DNA of 41,470 bases from a virus. Its lineage: Duplodnaviria > Heunggongvirae > Uroviricota > Caudoviricetes. Positions 3,947-41,470 of this stretch are shown one piece after another. The number at the start of each line of letters is the position of its first letter. The first letter of the stretch is position 1. The stretch spans positions 1 through 41,470 of the IMG/VR virus record IMGVR_UViG_2690316195_000001, one strand, 5' to 3'. The translations under genes and the position numbers were made by a program. The notes beneath the pieces were generated by a model. It was not told the DNA's origin and searched no databases. It worked only from the letters and a program-made list of their open reading frames with translations.

Positions 3947-4199
3947 TGGTTGCCTCCCCTTCCCACGTTTTAATGCTTTCACCACAGAACGGGCAAAATG
4001 AAACTCGAATCGGTAATTTAGAAAATTCACCTGACCGCAGCATGATCAAGTCTTGTGAGTGAATTAATTCATTGTTATAGATTTTGTATTTCAGCAGACC
4101 TTTTCGCGTCGTGTATTCAGCATCATGCTCAAGGGACCTTGCCAGTGCCGCACACGGCTCTATCTGATTGCCATAAACCTGGCATTTTGATTCGCTCAT
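3933..4199 (-). CDS. Hypothetical small protein with zinc-ribbon-like Cys pairs
   Basis: 88-aa track ORF, operon context, C..C and CPFC motifs; overlaps the downstream gene by 14 nt. Confidence 0.45.
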   Translation of the reverse strand: MSESKCQVYGNQIEPCAALARSLEHDAEYTTRKGLLKYKIYNNELIHSQDLIMLRSGEFSKLPIRVSFCPFCGESIKTWEGEATSERN

Positions 4200-4402
4200 T
4201 GCTTGAATCCCTCCCGAAGCTGTTCTGCACAGTGCAGCAGCGCATCAGTCGCTTCTTTCACCGTAACGAGATCGCCATCGTCCAGTCCTGCAATTTTTGC
4301 GTGCCTGACAAACGCCGCGCAAAGGTCGTTAAACGCCCCAGCCCGCACATCCGCCAAGAAAGCGTTAGCAGCAGCCAATTCCTGATAGTCAATCTTGCTC
4401 AC
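4196..4402 (-). CDS. Ea22-like N-terminal-domain paralogue (68 aa, GTG start)
   Basis: Starts [15 protein letters not shown], paralogous to the N-terminus of the 3440..3946 protein, with the same 17-nt start/RBS region (gctcactggttgcctcc). Confidence 0.5.
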
Positions 4403-4562
4403 TGGTTGCCTCCTTTGCGCCACATCGCATTCAGATATTTGTTTTGATTCACTGACGGAAAAGAATTTCTCTTAAGCAATTCCTCTCTCGATGGCATTGG
4501 CTTTACGCGTTGGCGAATAATCATTTCTGCCGGAAGAATGCCGGGATTGTATGCAAGTCCTC

Positions 4563-5183: not shown

Positions 5184-5567
5184 TCAGAATGGGATGGAAT
5201 CGTCGTATACAGGAGTGTTCTGCTGGTTACTACTTTGCTGCTGCGGGCCATTTCCTGAAGCTGCAAATCCAATCTTTGCATTCAGTAATTCAAGAGTGAT
5301 TGATTGACCATTTTGCCCCTGATAAACATCAACCCTGATGTTTTCTCCGGTAATTTCTACAATGCCACCTTCAACAAGAACACTACGGTAGTAATCCGCT
5401 TGCTCTCCCGGCTTGGCAAATACAACGGCGCTGTAGTTTGTCCATTCTTTCTTTTTTGTCTGGCGATCGTAATACTGAACGCCAGCACGGATGTTGAATC
5501 CGATATTTTCCCCGGCCTGAAACTCTCTTGCGGGCTTGTTTAGTCTTACAGTAATAGAATGTGCCAT
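5184..5567 (-). CDS. Single-stranded DNA-binding protein-like, with SSB-type acidic C-terminal tip
   Basis: 127 aa from MAHSITV; ends ...VYDDSIPF resembling the E. coli SSB tip DDDIPF; immediately downstream of erf with a 1-nt TAATG start/stop overlap. Confidence 0.65.
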   Translation of the reverse strand: MAHSITVRLNKPAREFQAGENIGFNIRAGVQYYDRQTKKKEWTNYSAVVFAKPGEQADYYRSVLVEGGIVEITGENIRVDVYQGQNGQSITLELLNAKIGFAASGNGPQQQSSNQQNTPVYDDSIPF

Positions 5568-6172
5568 TAAGCAGCAGCTCCTTCTAATTCGTCTCGTCTG
5601 ATGTTGTAAACGTCCTGCGCTTTGTGCTGCTCCGGTGTGCCTTCGAGCATCTTCCACGCTTTGGCGAACGCCTGTTTAAGCTCTTCTACGGTGTTTTTCT
5701 GCAATGCTGCGTCAGTGAATGCTTTTAGAACCTGTTCAGGTGTAGGTGATGGTTTTGATTGCTTTGCTGCTGCGTTCTGCTGATGTTTATGCTCGTCTGT
5801 ATCTGCATCTTTCGCATCATCAATGCCGAACAAACCATTGAGGCAATACTTGCGTGCATAAGAGCTTGTAGCTCCCGTAACTTGTGCAGAATCCATTCCT
5901 TTCTTGCTTTCTTCCTCTCGTGCAAGAGCGGTTGCTGTATGACTGTTTTCGCCATCAGTAATAGTTGCCGTTGCTTTCACGTAATACCGATCACCAATCA
6001 ACACAACTTCATCGCTGATTGATAAAAACAGACCATTCAGTAACGGCTTAACGCCTTCAAGAATATCTTCGCAGCTTCTGTATTTATATTTGCCGAATGA
6101 GTTGTACTGATTCTTTGGCGCGTTCAGATTCTCCTGAATAGCTGCCAGTCTTGCGTAAAATTCTTTGCTCAT
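5567..6172 (-). CDS. erf: Erf-family single-strand annealing recombinase
   Basis: MSKEFYARLAAIQENLNAPKNQYNSFGKYKYRSCEDILEG... matches P22 Erf as recalled; start trimmed from the track ORF to the MSKEFY ATG. Confidence 0.9.
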   Translation of the reverse strand: MSKEFYARLAAIQENLNAPKNQYNSFGKYKYRSCEDILEGVKPLLNGLFLSISDEVVLIGDRYYVKATATITDGENSHTATALAREEESKKGMDSAQVTGATSSYARKYCLNGLFGIDDAKDADTDEHKHQQNAAAKQSKPSPTPEQVLKAFTDAALQKNTVEELKQAFAKAWKMLEGTPEQHKAQDVYNIRRDELEGAAA

Positions 6173-6273
6173 ATGATTGTTCTCAGAATGGACACGGCCC
6201 AAGGAAATAACGCTGATTTAATACTTCGACTCGGGACAAGTTAAGGCATACCCGCATTCCTTCGCGGTCGCCA

Positions 6274-6432
6274 TTATGGCGATACCAGAGAGCTTTCTGT
6301 GTGTACATGCGTCTCTGTAACTTGCTCTCCTTCACTGTGGTTGCAAGTGACATGAATATCTCCTTCGTTACCGATTAAATCTTTCATCTGACGAATGAAT
6401 TCTTCGTCTGACCAGTTATCTGTAAAACTCAT
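6274..6432 (-). CDS. Small hypothetical protein (52 aa) in the kil position
   Basis: ATGA start/stop overlap with the upstream cIII-like gene; no family recognised; positional analogy only. Confidence 0.35.
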   Translation of the reverse strand: MSFTDNWSDEEFIRQMKDLIGNEGDIHVTCNHSEGEQVTETHVHTESSLVSP

Positions 6433-6599
6433 GGACGGCCTTGTTGTTTCAAAATATCCCAAAGCTTTTCGAGCAAACTTTTCATTCTTGGTTGTTTAAA
6501 GTCTGCTCCGGTTAAAATGTTTTTTCGTGAATGCTGCACCGATAAAATTGGGTTGAAAGGGCGAACCGATGCCGCCCCTGCAATAGCGAACTGTTGCAT
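6429..6599 (-). CDS. cIII: CIII-like protein (FtsH inhibitor, stabilises CII)
   Basis: 56 aa, MQQFAIAG...LEKLWDILKQQGRP resembles lambda CIII (MQYAIAGW...DILNQPGVP); GAAGGAG RBS. Confidence 0.7.
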   Translation of the reverse strand: MQQFAIAGAASVRPFNPILSVQHSRKNILTGADFKQPRMKSLLEKLWDILKQQGRP

Positions 6600-6662
6600 A
6601 GGATGCTCCTTCTGTTTGATTGCATAACGAAAACGCCTCGAGTGAAGCGTTATTGGTATGCA

Positions 6663-6689
6663 TATAAAAAGGCCCTCACACTGGAGGGC
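6663..6689 (-). terminator. Rho-independent terminator (tL-like) between the AT-rich island and cIII
   Basis: Stem GCCCTC/GAGGGC with 6-nt loop; plus-strand A-tract 6666-6670 gives a T-tract on the minus strand. Confidence 0.5.
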
Positions 6690-6793
6690 AAAGAAGATTT
6701 CCAATAATCAGAACAAGTCGGCTCCTGTTTAGTTACGAGCGACATTGCTCCGTGTATTCACTCGTTGGAATGAATACACAGTGCTTATTCGTA

Positions 6794-7264
6794 CTAATAA
6801 AACACCCAGTTTTCTGTTTCTTGGTTGTGTCCAAAGTTATATTCAATATCTGGTGTTGATGTATCAATATTCTTCATCCCATCAACAAGAGTTGATACAA
6901 CAGCCAAATCTTGTTTGATTCTCATTAAATGGTATTTCTTCCGGCGCAATAAACTTTCAATGGCAAGTTTCTTCGTTGGGAATGCAAAAGATCTTTCTGC
7001 ATTTTTTGCTACTTTCTTAATTGCATATCTATTTCTCTTTTGTTTCCATTCCTGTAACCACTGATTTGGTGCTGGTTTAAAATTAACAATCCAATGCGCA
7101 GGAACCAACCATGCATAATGCTCTGTCTGATGAAAAGCTATATATTGAAGTGCGAATATTTTGATTCCATCTTCTTCAACTGTCGCCTGGAATCTCCAGA
7201 AAACAGGCATTCCATCATGTTCAGTTTCTGATTCAGGAAAAGGTACGCTCCATGATTTTGTCAT
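6794..7264 (-). CDS. Hypothetical protein (156 aa), AT-rich island gene A
   Basis: Track ORF with GAGGTGAG RBS; strongly AT-rich relative to flanks; no recognisable domain. Confidence 0.6.
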   Translation of the reverse strand: MTKSWSVPFPESETEHDGMPVFWRFQATVEEDGIKIFALQYIAFHQTEHYAWLVPAHWIVNFKPAPNQWLQEWKQKRNRYAIKKVAKNAERSFAFPTKKLAIESLLRRKKYHLMRIKQDLAVVSTLVDGMKNIDTSTPDIEYNFGHNQETENWVFY

Positions 7265-7312
7265 ATCTCACCTCAAATAATTCAGTGCAGTGTTTATTCT
7301 GTTGTTAGTGCC

Positions 7313-7338
7313 AAAAATAAAGGCCGACTATGCGGCCT
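7313..7338 (-). terminator. Rho-independent terminator between island genes B and A
   Basis: Stem AGGCCG/CGGCCT (7321-7326/7333-7338), loop ACTATG, adjacent plus-strand A-tract 7313-7320; stop codon of gene B sits in the loop. Confidence 0.5.
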
Positions 7339-7951
7339 CGGAAGGAAGTCCAATCATCTTATTCAAATCTTCTACCCGTAAAGCAGGAAGTGCTGTACTT
7401 GCTTTATCTGCTTCTTTTGGTAGCAATTCTTTGCTTTCAGGCCAAACTTCAATAAGTCGCTTAACTGTTGTGACTGAGTTCAAAGCAGCCCATACATTTG
7501 ATTCGATATCCTTTTTCTTGGCTTCAAGTTTTTGTTGCAATGCGCAGATTTCATCAAACCTTTTTGTTATTTCGTGTTCTGCGCTAAACATGCATTTATC
7601 TTCGTTCGGAGTAGGGAGCAATATATCTTCGCCGTTGCCGTCTTTCCCATATGAAAGCCATCCAACCCTTCTGCCAGATACAGTAAGATAAATTGAAGTA
7701 GAACGAACATCGTATGAGTAAAATGAACATCCCATCTTTCCAAGTTCTTCACTTATAGCTACCAACTTGGATGATAACTGATCCACTTCCTCAGTTTTCT
7801 TTTTACCGCCAAACGCAATAACTCTGGCGTCAAGTGCAAGCTGGTTCTTTAACTTTGTTACTTCTTCAAGTTCAGTGAAAACCCCAGACTTAATTAAAGC
7901 GTTACGAGCGATTTCCTCTTTCATTCTCGTAGTTAAGCGGATTGATGACAT
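7328..7951 (-). CDS. Hypothetical protein (207 aa), AT-rich island gene B
   Basis: Track ORF trimmed to MSSIRLTT with GAGAGGA RBS; AT-rich; predicted coiled-coil segments; no recognisable domain. Confidence 0.6.
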   Translation of the reverse strand: MSSIRLTTRMKEEIARNALIKSGVFTELEEVTKLKNQLALDARVIAFGGKKKTEEVDQLSSKLVAISEELGKMGCSFYSYDVRSTSIYLTVSGRRVGWLSYGKDGNGEDILLPTPNEDKCMFSAEHEITKRFDEICALQQKLEAKKKDIESNVWAALNSVTTVKRLIEVWPESKELLPKEADKASTALPALRVEDLNKMIGLPSEAA

Positions 7952-8133
7952 ATTAATTCCTCTCAAATAAGTGGTTTGCTGCCTAATTTCATTTTCTGGC
8001 GGCCTGAGCATGCCACACCCATTTCACTGCGTGGCTTGCGGTAGTAAAGATTGTGCCTGTCTTTTAACCACATCAGGCTCGGTGGTTCTCGTGTACCCCT
8101 ACAGCGAGAAAAATAGTAAAATCCTCTCACCCC

Positions 8134-8496
8134 TTATTTTGTCAGGGGGATATCTCCTTCAGTTCTGACCATTCGCCTTAATACTTTCCTTAAGTCGATG
8201 TAAAGTTGAAGGTCTCCATTTGCTGCGGCATCAGCCATTTTTTGCCTGACAAGCAGTAATGTTTCATACGGCTCAATAAGAATATCGTCATGAGTAATTA
8301 GGTGAAGCGTTGCCGCATCAACTATTCCTAGAGCTGCGCCAAGTATCAAAAATTCCCTGCTATTTTTGTCGCATGAGGAGATAAGCGTATTTAGCGCATA
8401 CCTAATATTCTTTATAGCTGTTGTTAATGCTGCAATTTCTTCTATGGCGTCTTCTTCAATGAGCTTTTTAAGCTCATATTTTTCTTCCTGACCCAT
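8134..8496 (-). CDS. Hypothetical protein (120 aa), AT-rich island gene C, immediately downstream of N
   Basis: Track ORF trimmed to MGQEEKYELKK with GAGG RBS; no recognisable domain. Confidence 0.5.
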   Translation of the reverse strand: MGQEEKYELKKLIEEDAIEEIAALTTAIKNIRYALNTLISSCDKNSREFLILGAALGIVDAATLHLITHDDILIEPYETLLLVRQKMADAAANGDLQLYIDLRKVLRRMVRTEGDIPLTK

Positions 8497-8498
8497 AA

Positions 8499-8771
8499 TT
8501 ACCTCGCCGTCAGTTGTTTTGATTTCCGGTAGCCTGCCGCGTAAATAGCTACGTTTGGCAGGCAAATACTTCCACTGCATTCATCTGCCTTCTTGCAGCG
8601 AAGGCTTCCGAGTGATGCTGCTTTATCTGCTCTGACGCAACCAGAGAGCTTTAGCGCAATTTTTCGCGCCAGTCGCTGCTCTTGCATTGCCTGTTCACGT
8701 TGAGCCTGTCTGCGTGCTCTGCGGCGATTTCTGGCGTTATCGTCAGCCAGATATGTAATGACTACTGTCAT
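8499..8771 (-). CDS. N: N-like transcription antiterminator (P22 gp24 type)
   Basis: Arg-rich N-terminus (NARNRRRARRQAQREQ) and C-terminus ...LPNVAIYAAGYRKSKQLTAR resembling P22 gp24 as recalled; GGAGG RBS; downstream of nutL. Confidence 0.8.
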   Translation of the reverse strand: MTVVITYLADDNARNRRRARRQAQREQAMQEQRLARKIALKLSGCVRADKAASLGSLRCKKADECSGSICLPNVAIYAAGYRKSKQLTAR

Positions 8772-9084
8772 GTTGACCTCCGATGAAACAACTTTGGAAT
8801 TTTTTTTATTACAAAGTGGTTTCCTTCCCCGCCAATTAGACGGGGATGGAAGAGCATTTATGAGCCTTTATGGACTCTGCTCGATCAGTTCTATTTAATT
8901 AATCTCTCAATTGAATGTAAGTATTCACATAAATCCTCCTACCTCTTGTGCAGCTTTCTTGAATATGGTGGCGGCTGCATAACGCCTATGGAATTGACTT
9001 TGGCGGTGACGCGCCGGGTGCTTATCTTCCGGTTGCCGTCGTGCAGCTGCACTTCACGTCACCCCAAAGCCAACTACTCTTTGG

Positions 9085-9127
9085 TTCCCGCATTTCGGCG
9101 GGACAATCCCATCAATGTTAAAGAGCC
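9085..9127 (-). promoter_or_regulatory. nutL (boxA GGCTCTTTAA plus boxB hairpin)
   Basis: Minus-strand boxB is identical to the nutR boxB core (TTCCCGCCGAAATGCGGGAA); boxA-like 10-mer sits 14 nt upstream with the same spacing as nutR. Confidence 0.6.
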
Positions 9128-9173
9128 TTCCAATCTGTTCCGTTTGGCTACCAGCGTCCTGCTGATGGCTAAA

Positions 9174-9260
9174 GAATACTGTAGGTATTTTATTGTGTAA
9201 ATACCCAAGGTATTTATTTTTGATGAAATAATGATAAGCAAATGAATACAAAGGATATTT
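9174..9260. promoter_or_regulatory. OL operator cluster / pL region: three 17-bp sites
   Basis: GAATACTGTAGGTATTT (9174-9190), AAATACCCAAGGTATTT (9199-9215, perfect inverted repeat), GAATACAAAGGATATTT (9244-9260); same half-site consensus as OR. Confidence 0.6.
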
Positions 9261-9345
9261 ATTTCTTTCGGTGTCTGCTTGTTCAGTGCTTTTTTGCGGG
9301 ATATGTGAAGTGTATCCCGATAGCTATTGCTGCCGGGATTATAGG

Positions 9346-9714
9346 TTAGTCAGCGAAGGTTAAGACGAGAATTACCTTAATGATGTCTGCTACAACAGAC
9401 ACGGCCATAGATAAACCAAAGACGATCCAAGCCACAGTGATGTCTTCACTACCATCGTATAGAGTTCCGTAATCACTGGTGTAAGGCGTAAATGTCGCGC
9501 CTTGATACAATAGGTATAAGCTTGATCCATAGAGGATAAATGCAGATATCCCTTGTATTGCTATGATCACAAGAATCATGAAACGAGCTGATCTATGCGC
9601 CCAAGCCTGGCTTATTTTTTCTGATAGAGATTTCGCAATAAAAGCATGCGCTAAGCCGTAAATTGTCGAGATTGCCAACATCCCAAAAAAGCTTGCTATA
9701 GCGGTTCCAACCAT
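9346..9714 (-). CDS. Small multi-pass membrane protein co-transcribed downstream of cI (122 aa from the ATG at 9714; a TTG at 9735 is an alternative start)
   Basis: Three to four hydrophobic helices; AAGGGG RBS before the ATG at 9714; stop of cI directly upstream on the same strand. Confidence 0.6.
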   Translation of the reverse strand: MVGTAIASFFGMLAISTIYGLAHAFIAKSLSEKISQAWAHRSARFMILVIIAIQGISAFILYGSSLYLLYQGATFTPYTSDYGTLYDGSEDITVAWIVFGLSMAVSVVADIIKVILVLTFAD

Positions 9715-9731
9715 AAGCGCCCCTTGCGTGA

Positions 9732-10448
9732 TCAAACCAGCCTTAGTTTTGTCTCAATTGCAACGCCTATAATCTTGCAGTTTCCATTGATTGGCACGAG
9801 AGGCCATGCAGGATTAAGTCCCTTGAGGTATTTATTTCCGCCGTCGATTATCAGCTTCTTGAATGTTGCTTCGTTAGAGTCAGAAAGTTTTGCTATGACC
9901 AAGCTGCCGTTGATCGCCTCCCTTCCGGTATCGAAAAGAACGAATGTTCCCTCTGGAATGCTTAACCCAACCGGTGCCGTCATTGAATCACCTTCCACTT
10001 TAAGCCAAAACGCATTACCTTGAATATGCGCGTCAGACTCAAGCCAAACATCTATGTCTTTAATGGTGTATGGTTCGCATGCTTCACACCACGAGCCAGC
10101 CTGGATACTGCTTAACACCGGATACCTCTTTCCTGCTCTGTATTCCCCTGCATACCTTACGTTGGCATCGCTCTTAAGGCTTTCTGCCTGTTCTGCAACC
10201 TTGGCAGCAATTGACTGGCTAAAATCAGCAATTGAGACTTGCAACAATCGTGCAAAACCAGATGCAACCTCAACGTTTAGCGCATTTCTGCCATTAAGAT
10301 AATGCCCTACCGCTCCTTGGGTGATACCCAGTTCATCAGCGATTGAGTATTGGGTTATTCCCAATTCTTTCTTTTTTGACTCATACAAAGCCTTAAGCCG
10401 CTTAGCGTCTTCGAGCTGTTCTGTCGTCAGTGATTTTTTATTTTCCAT
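9732..10448 (-). CDS. cI: CI-type prophage repressor (LexA-like autocleaving)
   Basis: 238 aa with strong similarity to lambda cI by recall ([20 protein letters not shown]...; FWLEVEGNSMTAP; FKKLI); Ala-Gly cleavage site (QAG) and Ser/Lys catalytic motifs present. Confidence 0.95.
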   Translation of the reverse strand: MENKKSLTTEQLEDAKRLKALYESKKKELGITQYSIADELGITQGAVGHYLNGRNALNVEVASGFARLLQVSIADFSQSIAAKVAEQAESLKSDANVRYAGEYRAGKRYPVLSSIQAGSWCEACEPYTIKDIDVWLESDAHIQGNAFWLKVEGDSMTAPVGLSIPEGTFVLFDTGREAINGSLVIAKLSDSNEATFKKLIIDGGNKYLKGLNPAWPLVPINGNCKIIGVAIETKLRLV

Positions 10449-32261: not shown

Positions 32262-34655
32262 ATGGCTAATTACCGTGATTTGTTAGAGCAGGCTGGCGCA
32301 CGTTACGGTGTGCCAGAAGGGTTGATGACTGCACTGGGTGCCAAGGAGTCTTCTTACAACCCTGCCGCAGTAAGCTCCGCCGGGGCTGTAGGATTGACTC
32401 AGGTCATGCCTGGGACATGGCGTGATATGGGTTATACCGATGAGCAAATGCAAAACCCCGAATATCAGGCTGACGCTGGCGCGCGCTATCTGGCAAAGAT
32501 GTACCAGCAGTTTGGTAACTGGCGTGACGCTCTTCAGGCTTATCACGACGGTCCCGGCAACGTTATGAAGGCAAAGCGTGGTGAATATACGCCAGGACCT
32601 GAAGGCCGCGGTTACGTTGATGATCGCTTTGCTCAATGGGCGGGTGACCCGGTGACAGACTCAACAGTCGAACAGCGCGCCACCTCTGCAAAGGTACATC
32701 CTCAGCAAGACCCTAACAACCCGTTTGCACAACTGGAAGCACAGTCATCCGAACAAGTATCGGCATCAGGCGTGCAGTCAGACCCAAATAATCCATTTGC
32801 TCAGATTGAGCAGCAGGCAGCCAGTCAGCAGCCACCCCAACCCGTAAGTTCTGTCGCACCGAAACCTGTTCAGCAGCAAGGCGGAATAATGTCTGACCTT
32901 GGTAATGGACTTGCTGAAACCGGGCGCGGCTTACTACAGGCAGGAATCAACGTAGCGAACATACCTGCTGAACTCACTGATGCTGTAACAAGCGCGGCGG
33001 CTTGGGCTGGCGGTAAACTCGGCATTGGCGATGGTACATATCAACCAGCACCACGAGTAACAACGCAGGGATTAGAGCAGGACTTTGGCCTTCAGCAAGG
33101 CGCGCTGACTCCACAAACGACAGAGGGAAGGGTATTTGCTGAAGCATTACCTTACCTCACTCCTGCTGGCGTTGAGAGAGCGGCAACACAGGCACCAACA
33201 CTTGCTGGTCGAATTGCTCAGGGGGCAACTCGCCTTCTAGCAGAAAACGCAGTTGGATCACTTGCTGCAAACAGTGCGAAAGATGATGCGGAAGCACTCG
33301 CCACCGATTTAGGCGTTGGTGTGCTGGCTGGCGGTACTATTAACGCTGCCGGACGTGGATTAGGTGCTGCTTATCGTGGTGTTCGTGGTTCGATAGCACC
33401 AGAAGCTCAACAGGCTATCAGGTTTGCAGAGCGTGAAGGAGTTCCTCTGCACACCACAGACCTGTTACAGCCTACTTCCCGCGTCGGGAAAATGGCGCAG
33501 ACTACAGCAGAAAATATCCCTCTGGCTGGCACAAGCGGAATGAGAGCAACGCAACAGGAAGCGAGAAGCCAGTTGGTGCAGAGATTTGCTGATAAATTCG
33601 GTGAGTATGATCCATCTGTTGTTATTGACAGCCTTAAAGCGAAAACATCAGGAATTCGTCGTGCCGCCGGTAATCGACTGGAGCAGGTTCAGAATGCTAT
33701 GGCTGGAGTAAACATTCAGCCTGCGCGAGCAATTCAGCAGATTGATACAGAAATATCTAATCTGCAGAAGCTTGGTAAGGTAGCTGATAACGAGACAATT
33801 TCAAAACTTCAGTCATATCGTGATGAGCTTGTTCGCAATGCTGGCCCTGATGGTCCGGTTAATCTGGATTTGAAGCAATTAAGCGATCTGCGCAGCCAGT
33901 TCAGAATGGACGTGAAGGGGGAGCGACCAGTGTTACCAAACCGTTCCGATGCCGCCATTCAACGTGTTTACAAGGCGATGACCGACGATATCAATGGTGC
34001 CATTGGTCAGAATCTTGGCAACGATACTCTCCGTAAATATCAGCAGGCCAATGCCGTCTACGCTGACGAAGCGGCGAAACTAAAGAATACCAGGCTGAAG
34101 AATGTTCTCATGAAAGGAGACCTGACGCCGGAAGTTGTCAACAACATGCTATTCAGCAAGAACAAATCGGAAATTAAGACGCTGTATAACTCAGTTGGTC
34201 GTGTTGGCAGGGCGCAAATGCGCAATGGCATCATTGGAAAGGCGATGGAGAAATCTGGCGGATCCCCTGACCAGTTCCTTCGGCAGCTTAACATCCTGCA
34301 AAACCAGACTGGCATCACATTTAAGGGGCAGGACGCTGCTTATCTGAAAGGATTAAAAAACTACCTGCAATCCACGCAGCAGGCTGCAAAAGCGGCAGTA
34401 ACAACACCCACAGGGCAGCAAACTATCCCGTTCATTATTGGGTATGGGACGGCAATGAACCCGGCGACAACTGGCGCAGCGGTAAGCTACGGACTTCTTA
34501 CTCGCGCCTATGAGAGCGAACCATTCAGAAATGCAATGCTCCGAATGGCAAACACCCCACGCGGATCAACAGCCTTTGAGAAAGCAATGCAGCAGGCACA
34601 AAAGGCAATTAACGCTCTGACGCAGGGGGCTAAGTCTGATGCGTTGTCAGAATAG
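32262..34655 (+). CDS. Ejection protein (gp16 position) with N-terminal lytic transglycosylase domain
   Basis: 797 aa; N-terminus carries an SLT-like motif (ALGAKESSYNPAAVSSAGAVGLTQVMPGTWRD...YHDGPGNV). Confidence 0.75.
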   Translation: MANYRDLLEQAGARYGVPEGLMTALGAKESSYNPAAVSSAGAVGLTQVMPGTWRDMGYTDEQMQNPEYQADAGARYLAKMYQQFGNWRDALQAYHDGPGNVMKAKRGEYTPGPEGRGYVDDRFAQWAGDPVTDSTVEQRATSAKVHPQQDPNNPFAQLEAQSSEQVSASGVQSDPNNPFAQIEQQAASQQPPQPVSSVAPKPVQQQGGIMSDLGNGLAETGRGLLQAGINVANIPAELTDAVTSAAAWAGGKLGIGDGTYQPAPRVTTQGLEQDFGLQQGALTPQTTEGRVFAEALPYLTPAGVERAATQAPTLAGRIAQGATRLLAENAVGSLAANSAKDDAEALATDLGVGVLAGGTINAAGRGLGAAYRGVRGSIAPEAQQAIRFAEREGVPLHTTDLLQPTSRVGKMAQTTAENIPLAGTSGMRATQQEARSQLVQRFADKFGEYDPSVVIDSLKAKTSGIRRAAGNRLEQVQNAMAGVNIQPARAIQQIDTEISNLQKLGKVADNETISKLQSYRDELVRNAGPDGPVNLDLKQLSDLRSQFRMDVKGERPVLPNRSDAAIQRVYKAMTDDINGAIGQNLGNDTLRKYQQANAVYADEAAKLKNTRLKNVLMKGDLTPEVVNNMLFSKNKSEIKTLYNSVGRVGRAQMRNGIIGKAMEKSGGSPDQFLRQLNILQNQTGITFKGQDAAYLKGLKNYLQSTQQAAKAAVTTPTGQQTIPFIIGYGTAMNPATTGAAVSYGLLTRAYESEPFRNAMLRMANTPRGSTAFEKAMQQAQKAINALTQGAKSDALSE

Positions 34656-35689: not shown

Positions 35690-37582
35690 ATGTCAGATAT
35701 CACCGCAAATGTTGTGGTAAGCATGCCTTCGCAACTCTTCACTATGGCTCGTTCTTTTAAAGCCGTAGCCAATGGCAAAATTTATATCGGTAAAATTGAC
35801 ACTGACCCGGTAAATCCTGAAAACCAGATTCAGGTTTATGTGGAGAACGAAGACGGTTCTCACGTTCCTGTTTCGCAACCAATCATCATTAACACTGCTG
35901 GATATCCGGTATATAACGGACAGATTGCCAAGTTCGTAACTGTGCAAGGCCATTCTATGGCTGTTTATGATGCATATGGTGCGCAGCAGTTCTATTTTCC
36001 TAATGTGCTGAAGTATGACCCCGATCAGGCATTGCCAGCTTTCATAAGTAAATTGGCAGCAGTTGATGGTGAATCTTATATTGTTGGGGCGACTTATGAA
36101 CAAATAAGGACATCTAATGTTTCTGGAACGCAAATAAAATGCGTAGGAAGAGAACATAATAAGGATGGAGGGGAAGGATGGTTCTTCCTTGACTCAGATG
36201 ATACAACGACTGAAGATGATGATGGAACAGTATTAATTGATGCAGTCGGCCGTCGCTGGAAGCGTTCATATAATGGCGCAAAAATGGCTTCATGGTTTGG
36301 CGTGAAATCTGGAACAGAGGTTTCACCTGCTATTCAAAATATGCTTAATACTGGTACTGGAGGTATAGAAATTAAGGATGGGCAATACAATTCTACCACA
36401 AAAGTTACAGTAAACCACTCTGGATCAAATTTTCCTGTAATGGGAAGAAAAAGTAAGAGGTTTGACTTTACTGGCGAGTCAATGGTGAATACTGCATTTA
36501 ACACCAATGGCAATGATTTCCTTGAGTATATAGGTAATTCAGAAGGGGACGGGCAGGGTGTGCATAGCGGTATGAAGTTATCTAATTTCACTGTTTATGG
36601 TACTGGTAACTCTGGAGTTGGATTACGGTTAAGCAATGCTGCATACCTAAAAGTTGAGGATGTGTATCTCGTAAGAAATAATTCAGGCTTGGTAATAACA
36701 GGAGTTCTTACCAGTGAATTTAACAGAATTAACTCTCAATATAATAACTACGGTATGTACATCAACGGAGGAACAAACAGCACAGTTAACGCACTAAAAA
36801 TAAATGGTGTTTTTAGTGGTAACTCAAAATTTGGAATTGAAGGAGATATAGGCACAAGGATAAATCTAAACAACTGCAATTTTGAGGGTAATGGAACTCA
36901 GGGAGATACTGGTACAGGAGGTGTTTACCTAAGAGCTAAAGAACCAATGTCTGTGATAAATATATCTGATTGCTATTTTGAAGCAAATCAAGGAATATCA
37001 GACATTCAGGTTAATAACATGACATCTTCACCTCTTATAGTAAATATCAATTCATGCACATTTATAAGGGGGAATTCATCAGGCGGTTATTGTACATATG
37101 TGATTAGAGCGTTAAGCACTGGTGGTGGGCGTGTCATTGTTAACCTTAATGGGTGTCATTTTTTTACTCAAACAGCTTTTGGATACATACCTAGCGCTTC
37201 GAGACCATTTATCTCAGGAGGTACTTATATGACTTTAAATGGAATGGATACCTGTCATTTTAGTGAGGACATAAGCAAGTCTATATCTACGGTAAGCACT
37301 TCATCGGTGATTTCTGGAAGTGTAACATCGGCAGGTGTTGCGTATGCACCATCTTATTTAACAATAGCAAAACAATCCACAGGGGTATATTCAATTGATA
37401 GCACTTTCTCATATGGACCAACAGTAAATGACTTTCAGGTAGTAGCAAGTACTAAAACTAACGGGTTTAAGGTGCTATATGCAGGCAAGCCAAGCACAAC
37501 AGCCATCAGGATCGTGACCACTGATAACTCTGGCAACTTGGCTGATGCAGATTTTGACTTTATGATAACAAGAGTTAGATAA
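35690..37582 (+). CDS. Tailspike with P22-type head-binding domain and divergent beta-helix receptor-binding domain
   Basis: N-terminal about 125 aa ([43 protein letters not shown]...VLKYDPDQ) match the P22 gp9 head-binding domain; remainder is a repetitive, AT-rich beta-helix-like region. Confidence 0.9.
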
Positions 37583-37586
37583 AATT

Positions 37587-37619
37587 AAGGGCGAATACCG
37601 CCCTTAGCTTATTTTTTTA
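37587..37619. terminator. Bidirectional rho-independent terminator between convergent tailspike and gtrC
   Basis: Stem AAGGGCG/CGCCCTT, loop AATAC, with A-rich 5' flank and T-rich 3' flank. Confidence 0.6.
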
Positions 37620-38880
37620 TTATATCTAAATACCATCCTGAGTGTGGTAGTGTGTGCATTTTCACGCGGCTCCCTGGCTCTGCTGTCTCATATTTGTATG
37701 CCTCTTGCACCCATCCATTGTTAGGTCTTTTTTCAATTTTAAAGCTAACAATTCCAGATAGAATTACTGAGCAAGCCACTATGCAAAATGCTAATTTCTT
37801 TACATGCCCATGAAGCATATTAGTGAATGCTAGAAGTATCGACACCCAAAATATGGCCGGTATGACAAAATACCTTTGTCCTGGTCCTATTTGTAAGAGA
37901 GGCCATTGAGGCTGGTCTCTTGCAATGACTGGTCTGGCAAGGGCAAATCCCAACATAAGATAAGGAAAAATCACTAATGCTTTTTCTTTCCAGTTCCCTT
38001 TTAATAGCACGTATGCACTAATTGATAGGCCACATAAAGAAACAAAGTAATTTAAAGCATGCAGATCCCACACCTTTCTTGATAAGCTCTCGCTAAGAAA
38101 TGAGCCAAGGAATACTCTGGAGGATAGTATATCCATCAAAATACCTACACCTGCACCAAGTGGCGCGGTCGGTCGAGAGCCTTTAGAAGAGAGAAGTATG
38201 GCGGCTATCTGAATTAAACACACTATTGCGAAAGTTATGTAGAATAAGTTTAAGTTTCTGAATGCATTTTTTACTGCATTGATAGGAGTTTTTAGAATAT
38301 CTCCGTTTGTAATTCTTAGTAAGGCAACAGGAGCTAAAAAAACAATGAATGGCCCACTTAGGCCAGCCACAACCATCACCAAAAAGTCGTGTGCTTTCCA
38401 ATATAATCCATCAGTTCTATCTGCTACCAGCACCAAGAATAGCCATATTGCCATATACCAATGAGTGTTGGTTACGTTGGCATGCACCTCTTCAAGGTGT
38501 GGCATAGTTAAAATGAAGATTGAAATTAATATTCTTGGATATATAGAAACGCTTTTGAATCTATTAGATAGTATGAAGGTTATTATTACGCATCTTATCG
38601 ATAATGCAATAACAGTGAAAATAAAAGGTGATAGATATAATGGGAACAGCATGGAGAATGTCGCAACAAGTTTTGAAATTGTCTGATAGTAACCATCCTG
38701 TACTAAAATTATAGATTTCAGAGGGCCCAATGCATAAGCCTGACCAAGCCATACCCGTCCATCCTCTGCCCATAGTTGAGGGTGTGAAATAATATCAGGA
38801 CGACGCATGCAGAATATGATGAAACATATAACAAATATAATCAAAAACAAAAATATTCTGTTTGTGTTTATGCTATTCAT
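37609..38880 (-). CDS. gtrC: GtrC-like serotype-specific O-antigen glucosyltransferase (polytopic membrane protein)
   Basis: 423 aa, about 10 TM segments, AT-rich; ATGA overlap with gtrB; third gene of a gtrABC-type operon. Confidence 0.65.
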
Positions 38881-40312: not shown

Positions 40313-41470
40313 TCACTCCACCTTTTCATCAAGCCAGTCCGCCCACCATTGCATCATTTCCCTGCGTTTATCGAGATACTGCGCATGGTTGTAAATCCCG
40401 CGCACAGAACCGCCGTTGGCATGTGCCAGTTGCACTTCAATAGCATCAGCAGGCCATTCGTGCTCGTTCATAATCGTGCTGAATTCATGCCTGAATCCGT
40501 GACCGCTTTCCAGACCCTCATAGCCGATTTGTTTGATCACAAGCAATACCGCGTTCTCGCAGATTGGCTTTTTCTTATCGTTGCGGCCGGCAAAAACAAA
40601 CTCTGATACTGGTTTGGTGATAGAGCTTAGCGTAGTGAGAAGTTCAACCACCTGGTCTGACATAGGAACCACATGAATTTTGCGTCCCTTCATCACACTG
40701 GCGTTGATAGTGATAATCCTGTTTTCAAAATCGACGTTATTCCATAGCATAGAACGAAGCTCTTTCGTTCTTAGGGCTGTATAGCGTAAAACCTTGGTGG
40801 CAATGAGCGATACGATACTTCCTGAAAATGTTGCAAGTGCTTTGTTGAATGCCGGGATCTGGTCGGCAGGTAAAAATGGGAAGTTCTTCTTGCGGTATCC
40901 CTTCATGGCGTCAGCAAGGTCAGGTGCCGGGTTATATTTAGCCCTACCAGTGACAATAGCGTAACGGAAAACCTCGCCGCATCTTCTGCGGGCTTTGTTG
41001 GCTCGCTCCATTGCACCGCGATCTTCAAATCTGCGGATTACTTCCAGCAGTTGCATCGGCTCAATATCCTGAATTTCAAGGCCGCCGATGATAGGTAAAA
41101 TGTCGTCATCAAACATTTTTGCAAGTTCAGTCGCATACCCTACTGACCAGACTTGCTTCTTGTGCTCGTACCATTCCTTGTAAATCGCACTAAAGGAATT
41201 GTTGTTAGACGAAGCCTTTTTCGCCTTTACCGGATCGATGCCAACCGAGATGTCTTTCCTCGCAGTCCATGCCTTATCCCTTGCCTCCTGCAAAGTCATT
41301 AGCGGATATTTTCCTACGGTCAGGATTTTCTCCTTACCGTCAATCTTGTAGCGAAGCTGCCATACCTTTTTCCCTGACACAGGGACATAAAGGTACAGGC
41401 CATTACCATCGAGAAGGCGGTATGGTTTTTCTTTCGGCTTTGCTGCTTCAATCTGCTTAACGGTGAGCAT
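40313..41470 (-). CDS. int: Tyrosine integrase, P4/CP4-57 type
   Basis: 385 aa; N-terminal arm-binding DUF4102-like region (KPYRLLDGNGLYLYV...WQLRYK) and C-terminal catalytic domain (R...HGFRHEF...Y); start codon is the last codon of the window. Confidence 0.9.
   Translation of the reverse strand: MLTVKQIEAAKPKEKPYRLLDGNGLYLYVPVSGKKVWQLRYKIDGKEKILTVGKYPLMTLQEARDKAWTARKDISVGIDPVKAKKASSNNNSFSAIYKEWYEHKKQVWSVGYATELAKMFDDDILPIIGGLEIQDIEPMQLLEVIRRFEDRGAMERANKARRRCGEVFRYAIVTGRAKYNPAPDLADAMKGYRKKNFPFLPADQIPAFNKALATFSGSIVSLIATKVLRYTALRTKELRSMLWNNVDFENRIITINASVMKGRKIHVVPMSDQVVELLTTLSSITKPVSEFVFAGRNDKKKPICENAVLLVIKQIGYEGLESGHGFRHEFSTIMNEHEWPADAIEVQLAHANGGSVRGIYNHAQYLDKRREMMQWWADWLDEKVE

Follow-up and report, generated by a model that had tools for sequence, protein, structure and literature searches.

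In lambda, the region between the antitermination gene N and cIII carries ral, orf28, sieB, ea10, the tL2 terminators and the PreS small RNA. PreS, which binds Hfq and accumulates as RNAs of about 88 and 68 nt, is reported to be encoded in the ral-ea10 interval, to end at tL2a on its 3' side and to regulate dnaN (bioRxiv 10.1101/2024.10.31.621285). In related phages the same slot reads N-gp45-cIII (HK97), N-Nun-Nmad5-cIII (mEp235) or N-hkaQ-hkaP-cIII (HK620). The DNA analysed here (IMG/VR record IMGVR_UViG_2690316195_000001; 41,470 nt, referred to as the window) represents a P22-like prophage of the HK620/CUS-3 type in its integrated state. A LacY-like ORF at the start of the window had raised the suspicion of an engineered construct, which was dropped because the transporter is a chromosomal MFS protein that flanks the prophage in 115 genomes. 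Compared with lambda, the locus shows the same pL-operon slot and the same backbone linkers, whereas the coding cargo is wholly different. Three minus-strand genes, A (156 aa), B (207 aa) and C (120 aa), lie between N (8499-8771, minus strand; Pfam N_peptide PF25694, E = 1.1e-15) and cIII (6429-6599, minus strand, 56 aa; phrog_550, CIII, E = 4e-22), which forms the left edge of the variable slot and stands at the homologous position in mEp235, E9 and HK97. The first-pass annotation had called these ORFs and placed them in the N-cIII accessory slot, within reach of pL transcription, and both statements held. All three are real genes, with strong Shine-Dalgarno sequences and purifying selection (dN/dS 0.16 for C; dS saturated for A and B, with dN of 0.28-0.57). 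Judged by homology, gene C is HkaQ, gene B an Nmad5-family protein and gene A an HK97-gp45-family protein. We consider it probable that three mutually independent accessory genes have come to lie side by side in this slot, a variable part of the pL (early-left) operon, and that they serve the phage in lytic growth; this applies to the joint reading, of which the anatomy and mosaic structure are near-certain and the functional part much less so.

The base composition of the segment differs from that of its flanks. Its GC content is 39.5%, whereas the window as a whole averages 46.8% (z = -2.0, with values this low in 5% of windows of the same length), and the windowed calculation placed it below its flanks, not level with them. 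Gene A has 36.1% GC (z = -2.5), B 40.2% and C 39.7%, so that the three genes lie at 36-40% versus 45-51% in the neighbouring genes, and third-position GC is 0.29, 0.34 and 0.34 for A, B and C, compared to 0.42-0.44 for erf, cI and N. The AT-richness that had been noted by eye is thus real but modest, and the lowest values occur elsewhere; the GC minimum of the window is found at 36-38 kb. A base composition unlike that of the flanks, as used to recognise morons, is present in all three genes.

This shared skew, together with their adjacency and common orientation, would fit the view that A, B and C were acquired horizontally as one cassette and work together as a new defence, anti-defence or exclusion system, as the term 'three-gene island' in the first-pass annotation implied. 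Among 5,426 complete E. coli genomes, we found gene A in 593 (~11%), gene B in 209 (~4%) and gene C in 95. A and B are neighbours in 48 of these genomes, which speaks for a cassette, but B and C are neighbours in only 5, A adjoins B in only 23% of the B carriers, and all three genes are adjacent in none. Likewise, no place in the 5,426 genomes covers at least 80% of 6600-8800, and the conserved co-occurrence expected of a multi-gene defence cassette was not found in this set. Each gene also occurs without the other two in a type phage, namely A in HK97, B in mEp235 and C in HK620. In one Vibrio phage, a remote homolog of A and an Nmad5 gene share an early operon, which is a further point in favour of a cassette; a functional link between A and Nmad5 was considered on this basis and given up, as four other remote A contexts lack Nmad5, with the reservation that two contigs are only ~1.3-1.5 kb long and carry little weight. 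Moreover, the segment has three distinct junctions with insertion scars, and the module boundaries are sharp (6785/7282; 7283/~7961; and 8130 to 8786, with gene C moving together with N). Neither the three proteins nor the hkaS-like ORF had a meaningful match in PADLOC-DB. The co-occurrence counts largely refute the single-cassette reading, which we regard as highly improbable.

Instead, the region represents ordinary lambdoid mosaicism, all parts of which are already in databases. ORFs about 96-100% identical to A, B and C were already sequenced and annotated in classic phages, and the genes are catalogued hypothetical ORFs, with 97-100% identical ORFs annotated as such since 2000-2001. In this mosaic, the cargo genes are joined at short conserved boundaries common to lambdoid phages, namely central N, a fossil N 3' end, a T-run linker as found after lambda ral, and a PreS/tL2A element. 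The anatomy, the boundaries, the family assignments and the independent assortment of the three genes are directly shown.

The PreS/tL2A element (6662-6784, minus strand) is the equivalent of the lambda ral-ea10 intergenic region; it holds the PreS/LPR1 sRNA region and ends in tL2A. Its 123 nt are 97.6% identical to lambda 33,923-34,045, the first 113 nt being identical, and the corresponding RNA has a folding z-score of -4.7; a search of 6000-9500 against Rfam 15 gave no matching family. tL2A itself consists of a hairpin at 6672-6689 and a T-tract, and HK620 annotates tL2A at the homologous site. A second backbone terminator-like hairpin, tL2B (6632-6651, minus strand), was found in the terminator scan and mapped from HK620. 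Because the PreS/tL2A segment is backbone sequence, present in all seven loci compared whether or not they contain gene A, the terminator at 6689-6672 is not gene A's own. Directly next to it, gene A occupies a 498-bp insertion (6785-7282, minus strand; CDS 6794-7264) bordered on both sides by copies of a short direct repeat, GAATAAACACTGCACTG (7283-7299) and GAATAAGCACTG (6779-6790). Lambda and mEp235 retain the empty site, which reads …AACAC(T/A)GCACTG and, across the junction, TGTATTC….

A second terminator-like site, GAGGCCG-CATAG-TCGGCCTT followed by a T-run (7310-7339, minus strand; hairpin 7339-7320), overlaps the stop codon of gene B. From the 3' half of the hairpin through the T-run (7283-7331), it shares 92% identity with the stretch that immediately follows lambda ral. 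Overall, the terminator scan yielded five hairpin plus T-run sites, compared to 2.6±1.9 expected, an excess that is not significant. The terminators that had been proposed after B and A therefore exist as hairpin plus T-run sites, but the site after A belongs to the conserved tL2A/PreS backbone and the site after B is half linker, and the claim that they insulate the segment transcriptionally did not stand. The regulatory signals are a property of the backbone and not of an island. The PreS/tL2A element is a conserved backbone joint beside which cargo genes are swapped, and this role should guide how 'terminators' are annotated in such regions. An AT-rich accessory gene with a following terminator, as seen for B, also fits the classical picture of a moron.

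At the other end of the slot, N is a 90-aa hybrid. Its codons 1-64 match N of STEC379 and HK620 (annotated in HK620 as similar to N of H-19B and phage 21), and alignment with the N of STEC379, which is uninterrupted and 101 aa long, identified the last 26 codons (8499-8579) as an alternative tail, SGSICLPNVAIYAAGYRKSKQLTAR. A relative with an N of just 39% identity retains this tail, whose dN/dS is 0.09. The 3' end of a canonical N gene, ending in LYYRKPRSEMGVACSGRQKMKLGSKPLI and a stop, persists as a fossil that fills the spacer between C and B (7963-8050, minus strand) and aligns with the C-termini of both the uninterrupted STEC379 N and lambda N; mEp235 contains the same fossil upstream of Nmad5. 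In addition, 8031-8111 is 98.8% identical to lambda 34,373-34,453.

Gene C (8134-8496, minus strand; phrog_7374, E = 3e-79) encodes an acidic protein (pI 5.0) and starts 2 nt past the N stop codon, with its Shine-Dalgarno sequence within the last N codons. A 148-aa ORF reaches 8580, but a 64%-identical relative starts at the Met equivalent to that of the 120-aa protein, and the 148-158-aa ORF calls for this gene just overlap N in another frame. Residues 30-120, as aligned by tblastn, are 98.9-100% identical to hkaQ of HK620, HK629 and HK630, and at DNA level the N-hkaQ stretch matches HK620 with 99% identity over the whole gene; the 64%-identical protein is the only diverged relative. In HK620, hkaQ likewise begins 2 nt downstream of this hybrid N, but is followed there by the convergent sieB-like hkaP and tL1, whereas here the fossil N tail, B and A take the place of hkaP. 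In mEp235, HK022-type Nun occupies gene C's exact slot, directly following N, with the same fossil N tail and Nmad5 downstream. The two proteins nevertheless show no sequence relation (hhalign probability 0.3%), and gene C lacks an arginine-rich motif. The NCBI label 'antitermination N domain protein' was likewise rejected for gene C, which matches no N family (PF25694, PF11438 and PF26859; Pfam and NCBIfam) and has no arginine-rich motif. The N tail and gene C might form a functional pair, as both are kept in the 64% relative, but this idea is weakened by phage phi367, in which the same tail is followed by a different gene. Searches of Pfam, NCBIfam, PADLOC and PDB gave no match for gene C, and the one mention of HkaQ found in the literature is as the landmark for an insertion, in a paper on a biosensor.

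Gene A matches phrog_1636 over its whole length (E = 5.4e-112, 1-156/156) and is 98.7% identical to HK97 gp45 and 100% identical to an H-19B ORF. In HK97, too, gp45 is located in the N-cIII interval with the same terminator downstream, but there it is the sole gene of the slot. Family members are also found in BP-4795, Min27 (ORF20) and many other Stx phages, and the wider family (PHROGs 1636, 13631 and 25384; 85 representatives) has no Pfam model. The AlphaFold model of gene A (pLDDT 52.6) was too poor for a fold search. The surroundings of gene A and of its remote relatives are early regions, with xis-int, RecT/YqaJ or DUF2800 as neighbours. The gp45-family protein, which is basic and Trp-rich and shares early operons with recombination modules across distant phages, could conceivably be an unrecognised nucleic-acid-binding accessory or nuclease inhibitor. 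The earlier statement that none of the three proteins has a recognisable domain holds for A and C, which have no Pfam match, but not for B, which spans the whole Pfam Nmad5 model. Homology to early-left proteins with established roles was not found for any of the three: A, B and C show no detectable homology to Ral, Ea10, SieB, P22 gp17 or Nun, and Pfam and PHROG assign them to other families (gene A versus lambda Ea10 and versus the P22 gp17 homolog: hhalign probability 0.1% each). NCBIfam gave no match for A, B or C, a PDB sequence search returned chance matches only, and a literature search by accession numbers found nothing.

With 99% identity, the immunity region, pL and nutL agree closely with their annotated counterparts in HK620, which allowed us to map the signals of the operon. 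pL, the promoter of the early-left operon (N, C, B, A), lies at 9166-9201 (minus strand; 99% identity to HK620), in agreement with a promoter-like match (TTTACA-17-TATTCT) at 9201-9173. Upstream of pL, the terminator tIMM at the end of the cI-hkaS (pRM) transcript maps to 9234-9264 (minus strand; 99% homology to HK620), and nutL, with boxA GCTCTTTAA and a boxB hairpin, to 9086-9127 (minus strand; 99% homology to HK620 nutL). An alternative nutL at ~8825-8857, where a boxA-like sequence and a hairpin occur, was given up for the HK620-annotated site. A crude sigma-70 consensus scan, which weak or non-sigma-70 promoters may escape, yielded three weak matches compared to 5.5 expected, one of them pL, and none upstream of A, B or C as a promoter of their own. 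The first intrinsic terminator predicted downstream of pL is the hairpin at 7339-7320, Rho-dependent terminators not being predictable. From this arrangement we infer that transcription would begin at pL and that N, C and B, because they precede this terminator, would be made immediately. Gene A and the PreS-like sRNA, which lie behind it, would depend on N antitermination at nutL. A, B and C would then act early in lytic growth of the infecting or induced phage, with host takeover, support of DNA metabolism or counter-defence as candidate roles.

In other phages this slot also houses sieB, HK022-type nun and a homolog of P22 gene 17, genes that are lysogen-expressed or carry an annotation as exclusion genes, and position alone can therefore not decide who benefits. 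A, B and C might accordingly be individual morons expressed from the prophage that guard the lysogen against superinfection like sieB, rex or nun, as would be in line with the sieB-like hkaP, the Nun homolog and the P22 gene 17 homolog in this slot of relatives, the GC content below that of the flanks and the terminator after B. We consider this unlikely, since promoter-like sites are missing upstream of the three genes in the consensus scan, tIMM stands between pRM transcription and A/B/C, and the genes are tightly spaced on the strand of the pL operon, with C beginning 2 nt after N. The lack of PADLOC matches likewise speaks against morons of this kind, as do Nmad5 relatives in virulent phages, in which lysogen defence would be senseless. 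The predicted tIMM would in particular argue against read-through expression of N and A/B/C in the lysogen. With regard to the defence, anti-defence or exclusion function proposed by the first-pass annotation, the absence of PADLOC matches and of detected promoters of their own, together with the upstream tIMM, favours a role for the infecting phage over lysogen defence. Based on their co-orientation with pL, the lack of promoter-like sites of their own and the shielding from pRM by tIMM, A, B and C are most likely pL-driven genes for lytic growth and not a defence cassette expressed in the lysogen.

Gene B (7328-7951, minus strand) covers the entire Nmad5 model (PF18757; E = 5.5e-72; 242.6 bits at a cut-off of 27; model positions 1-206/206) and is 96-98% identical to ORFs of HK244 and mEp235. 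A 227-aa ORF reaches 8011, but the homologs all begin with MSSIRL. Nmad5 homologs are present in phages of the genera Dhillonvirus and Yuavirus, which are virulent. These proteins share with gene B an N-terminal RLT…NAL and a C-terminal T-x-K-[KR]-L-x-x-WPE…LN…G[LI]P, although in Dhillonvirus only the C-terminal half aligns with gene B. Gene B could take part in modifying the bases of the phage DNA as a way to evade restriction, given its full-length Nmad5 match and a Yuavirus (M6-like) homolog within a thymidine-hypermodification cluster (PMC9476957), where it lies between kinase and aGPT-Pplase-position genes on one side and a dU hydroxymethylase on the other. The family owes its name to this kind of genomic neighbourhood with nucleotide-modification enzymes. 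Unlike this homolog, gene B has no surrounding modification gene cluster: the flanking and nin-region ORFs scanned contained no aGPT-Pplase, kinase or hydroxymethylase, but N antiterminator, Erf, Abc2, Ead/Ea22, DUF551, DnaB, NinB, Dam, Rha/ANT, RusA and Q, as well as cIII by PHROG. The literature we found reports no base-modification activity for Nmad5. While the name Nmad5 hints at an enzymatic role, neither the genomic context nor the predicted fold of gene B lends it support, and we regard a part in base modification as quite improbable.

The AlphaFold model of gene B (pLDDT 84.3) shows a long helical bundle with a small beta insert and a disordered but conserved tail. It matches viral models in BFVD, several of them named Nmad5 (best E = 4e-13, TM 0.77), whereas no solved structure and no solved enzyme relative was matched. 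The C-terminal motif T-x-K-[KR]-L-x-x-WPE … LPAL-x-V-x-DLN-x-x-IGLP is invariant, and this motif together with the predicted helical-bundle fold suggests that gene B may be a partner-binding adaptor rather than an enzyme. In Dhillonvirus, nmad5 is dispensable, attempts to clone it failed, apparently due to toxicity, and its link to the Tmn defence system comes from K-to-E escape mutants and not from a biochemical function (PMC11846954). If the published proteins have the same length as that of phage Oekolampad, the escape residue would correspond to the K/R of the K-[KR]-L motif (K164-R165 in gene B). We tentatively propose, as a possibility of limited weight, that these early proteins, each of which stands alone, include at least one new effector of counter-defence or host takeover, most concretely Nmad5 as an adaptor sensed by Tmn. 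Such an adaptor would engage a host DNA-replication or repair factor via its invariant C-terminal motif without modifying nucleotides, and Tmn would sense this motif. If true, lambdoid Nmad5, made immediately from pL, would both aid the phage and expose it to Tmn-like immunity. Distant homologs of gene B in Serratia and Providencia prophages lie right after the repressor gene and before recombination or replication genes, an early-operon setting that speaks for the lytic reading.

The window represents an integrated prophage that is P22-like and belongs to the HK620/CUS-3 type. A host MFS (LacY-family) oligosaccharide transporter gene (1-1248) flanks its left end, followed by a TorI-like excisionase gene (1778-1978) and, left of the immunity region, the Ead/Ea22, Abc2 and Erf genes. 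DnaB, NinB, Dam, RusA and Q lie right of the immunity region, then structural genes with a P22-type tailspike and gtrABC, and the integrase gene occupies 40313-41470. Excisionase and integrase are located at opposite prophage ends, an arrangement known for KplE1/HK620-type phages. On the minus strand, the early-left region comprises cI (9732-10448), an hkaS-like hydrophobic ORF (9346-9735), N (8499-8771), gene C (8134-8496, 120 aa), gene B (7328-7951, 207 aa), gene A (6794-7264, 156 aa) and cIII (6429-6599), then a kil-region ORF and Erf. Beside Erf, a 157-aa ORF (5184-5657, minus strand) without Pfam match ends in …PVYDDSIPF, like the acidic tail of bacterial SSB; its mEp235 counterpart carries a single-strand binding protein annotation.

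The first-pass annotation had read genes A, B and C, whose ORFs and coordinates it gave correctly, as one newly acquired island of domain-less proteins, far more AT-rich than its flanks. All three are real genes, with strong Shine-Dalgarno sequences, protein-level conservation across genera, and saturated synonymous divergence (A and B) or a dN/dS of 0.16 (C). The AT skew holds up on calculation but is moderate: the N-cIII segment has 39.5% GC, and the window averages 46.8% (z=-2.0). Gene A is the extreme among the three (36.1%), and GC3 reaches 0.29, 0.34 and 0.34 in A, B and C versus 0.42-0.44 in erf, cI and N. The lowest-GC stretch of the window is not this segment but 36000-38000 (~38%), which covers the C-terminal part of the tailspike and a gtrC-like gene. 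GC content of gene B homologs tracks the host (Serratia prophage 52%, Providencia 34%, Pseudomonas phage 64%). The skew is compatible with acquisition from a lower-GC gene pool and gives no date for the event.

Aligning the window to seven related loci (L001-L007) revealed sharp and separate boundaries for an A module (6785-7282) and a B module (7283 to ~7961), while C moves together with N (8130-8786). Of 5,426 complete E. coli genomes, 593 carry gene A, 209 carry B and 95 carry C; A and B were adjacent in 48, B and C in five, and all three in none. At least 80% of 6600-8800 was held by no phage record and by none of these genomes. Each gene also occurs without the other two in a classic phage: A in HK97 (N-gp45-terminator-cIII), B in mEp235 (N-Nun-Nmad5-cIII), and C in HK620 (N-hkaQ-hkaP-tL1-tL2A-tL2B-cIII). 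Other relatives carry ral, a P22 gene 17 homolog or unrelated ORFs in this slot. These analyses show A, B and C to be distinct mosaic modules, placed between conserved joints of the pL operon, and do not support one newly acquired island. All components have been catalogued before, namely HK97 gp45, Nmad5 and HK620 HkaQ as coding genes, plus the PreS/tL2A element; gene B belongs to the Nmad5 family (Pfam PF18757) and is not domain-less. The first-pass observation stands in part.

The junctions retain scars. The gene A module is a 498-bp insertion, with the empty site …AACAC(T/A)GCACTG|TGTATTC… in lambda and mEp235 and a direct repeat (GAATAAACACTGCACTG / GAATAAGCACTG) on both sides of the insertion in the window. 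What looks like a 180-bp spacer between C and B contains, downstream of gene C, a fossil 3' end of a canonical N gene (7963-8050, minus strand; …YYRKPRSEMGVACSGRQKMKLGSKPLI*). Measured against the 101-aa N of strain STEC379, which is uninterrupted, the window N keeps 64 codons and has ~531 bp in place of 22 bp, bringing an alternative 26-residue N tail (8499-8579, minus strand; Pfam N_peptide type, PF25694) and gene C. The N gene of the window is a hybrid. The alternative tail, which resembles the P22 gp24 C-terminus, stands in for one aligning with the C-terminus of lambda N, whose C-terminal part contacts RNA polymerase. It is under purifying selection (dN/dS 0.09 versus a relative with an N of just 39% overall identity). 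The place of gene C is taken in mEp235 by a Nun homolog, upstream of the same fossil N end. In a metagenomic relative (L014, 1009-2948), an N (90 aa)-HkaQ-like pair precedes, in the same operon, a complete second antiterminator gene from a different family (PF26859), so this phage has two N-type genes.

Window positions 10600-8993 and 8786-8130 are 99% identical to HK620, and transfer of its annotation placed tIMM at 9234-9264, pL at 9166-9201, nutL at 9086-9127, tL2A at about 6662-6689 and tL2B at about 6632-6651. The terminator after gene A, previously taken to insulate the island, is thus the backbone tL2A. It lies within a segment (6662-6784; RNA fold z=-4.7) present in 7/7 related loci, with or without gene A, and 97.6% identical to the lambda ral-ea10 intergenic region (first 113 nt identical). 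In lambda, this region is the reported site of the Hfq-dependent sRNA PreS (LPR1; ~88 and 68 nt, ending 3' at tL2a; bioRxiv 10.1101/2024.10.31.621285). Here, the PreS/LPR1-like region (6662-6784, minus strand), for which Rfam holds no family, would serve as 3' UTR to gene A rather than to ral. After gene B, a hairpin (7339-7320) overlaps the B stop codon; the 3' half of this hairpin and the T-run share 92% identity with the sequence directly after lambda ral. Five terminators in the region versus 2.6+/-1.9 expected are by themselves no significant excess. The stretch from nutL to the start codon of N includes a 206-bp segment (8787-8992) that is missing with an exact junction in HK620, phi367, STEC379, E9 and O26 prophages and carried by CUS-3 (98.9%) and HK140 (89%). 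The segment contains a boxA-like TGCTCTTCC followed by a hairpin (CCCCGTC-TAATT-GGCGGGG) and may be a second nut-like site.

Because a consensus scan found no promoter-like sites ahead of A, B and C and tIMM is expected to stop read-through from pRM, the three genes would be transcribed from pL only. N, C and B, located before the first predicted intrinsic terminator, should be immediate-early, and A and the PreS-like RNA, located behind it, should need N at nutL. Slot position alone cannot settle function, since relatives carry sieB-like, gp17-like and Nun genes there. Nmad5 also occurs in virulent phages (Dhillonvirus, Yuavirus); together with pL timing, this tentatively points to functions that benefit the phage during infection or induction (takeover of the host, support of DNA metabolism or counter-defence), and does not seem to point to lysogen defence.

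The Nmad5 name derives from genomic association. Unlike the homolog of Yuavirus/M6-like phages, which lies within a thymidine-hypermodification cluster, Dhillonvirus nmad5 stands alone, encoded on the opposite strand with lysis genes on one side and capsid genes on the other. The homolog of Serratia and Providencia prophages is directly downstream of the repressor gene, with recombination or replication genes further along the operon. No modification enzymes were found beside gene B among the window ORFs scanned. Dhillonvirus nmad5 is dispensable, cloning attempts failed, apparently from toxicity, and a single K-to-E change allows escape from Tmn defence, whereas deletion does not (PMC11846954); our literature search found no further experimental data on Nmad5.

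Gene A corresponds to HK97 gp45, an H-19B ORF, Min27 ORF20 and many Stx-phage ORFs, and encodes a basic (pI 9.0), Trp-rich protein whose structure model is too poor for use (pLDDT 52.6). An exhaustive profile search retrieved 85 remote representatives of about 130-155 aa, with no Pfam family and spread over three PHROGs; those whose context could be read map to early regions of phages, close to RecT/YqaJ, DUF2800 or xis-int. The distant Vibrio phage vB_Vp_PvVp04_M carries a remote A homolog (4001-4450, ~24% identity) and an Nmad5 gene (5448-6080) in one early operon, three genes apart; Nmad5 was absent from four other remote contexts, two being contigs of only ~1.3-1.5 kb. Gene C (HK620 HkaQ) encodes an acidic protein (pI 5.0) with only one diverged relative (64% identity) in 5.8 billion clusters. 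Hundreds of NCBI records label this protein "antitermination N domain protein". No test run supports the label, no N-family model matches, and some gene calls lengthen C by 28 residues that overlap N in a different reading frame; the label appears to be an annotation artefact. A, B and C matched nothing in PADLOC, NCBIfam or PDB sequences, nor Ral, Ea10, gp17 or Nun.

The hkaS homolog (9346-9735, minus strand; 129 aa, GRAVY 1.0, phrog_6534) occupies the position that rexAB has in lambda, immediately behind cI and ahead of tIMM. The lysogen probably transcribes it together with the repressor gene, so it is a stronger candidate than A, B or C for a lysogen-expressed exclusion gene.
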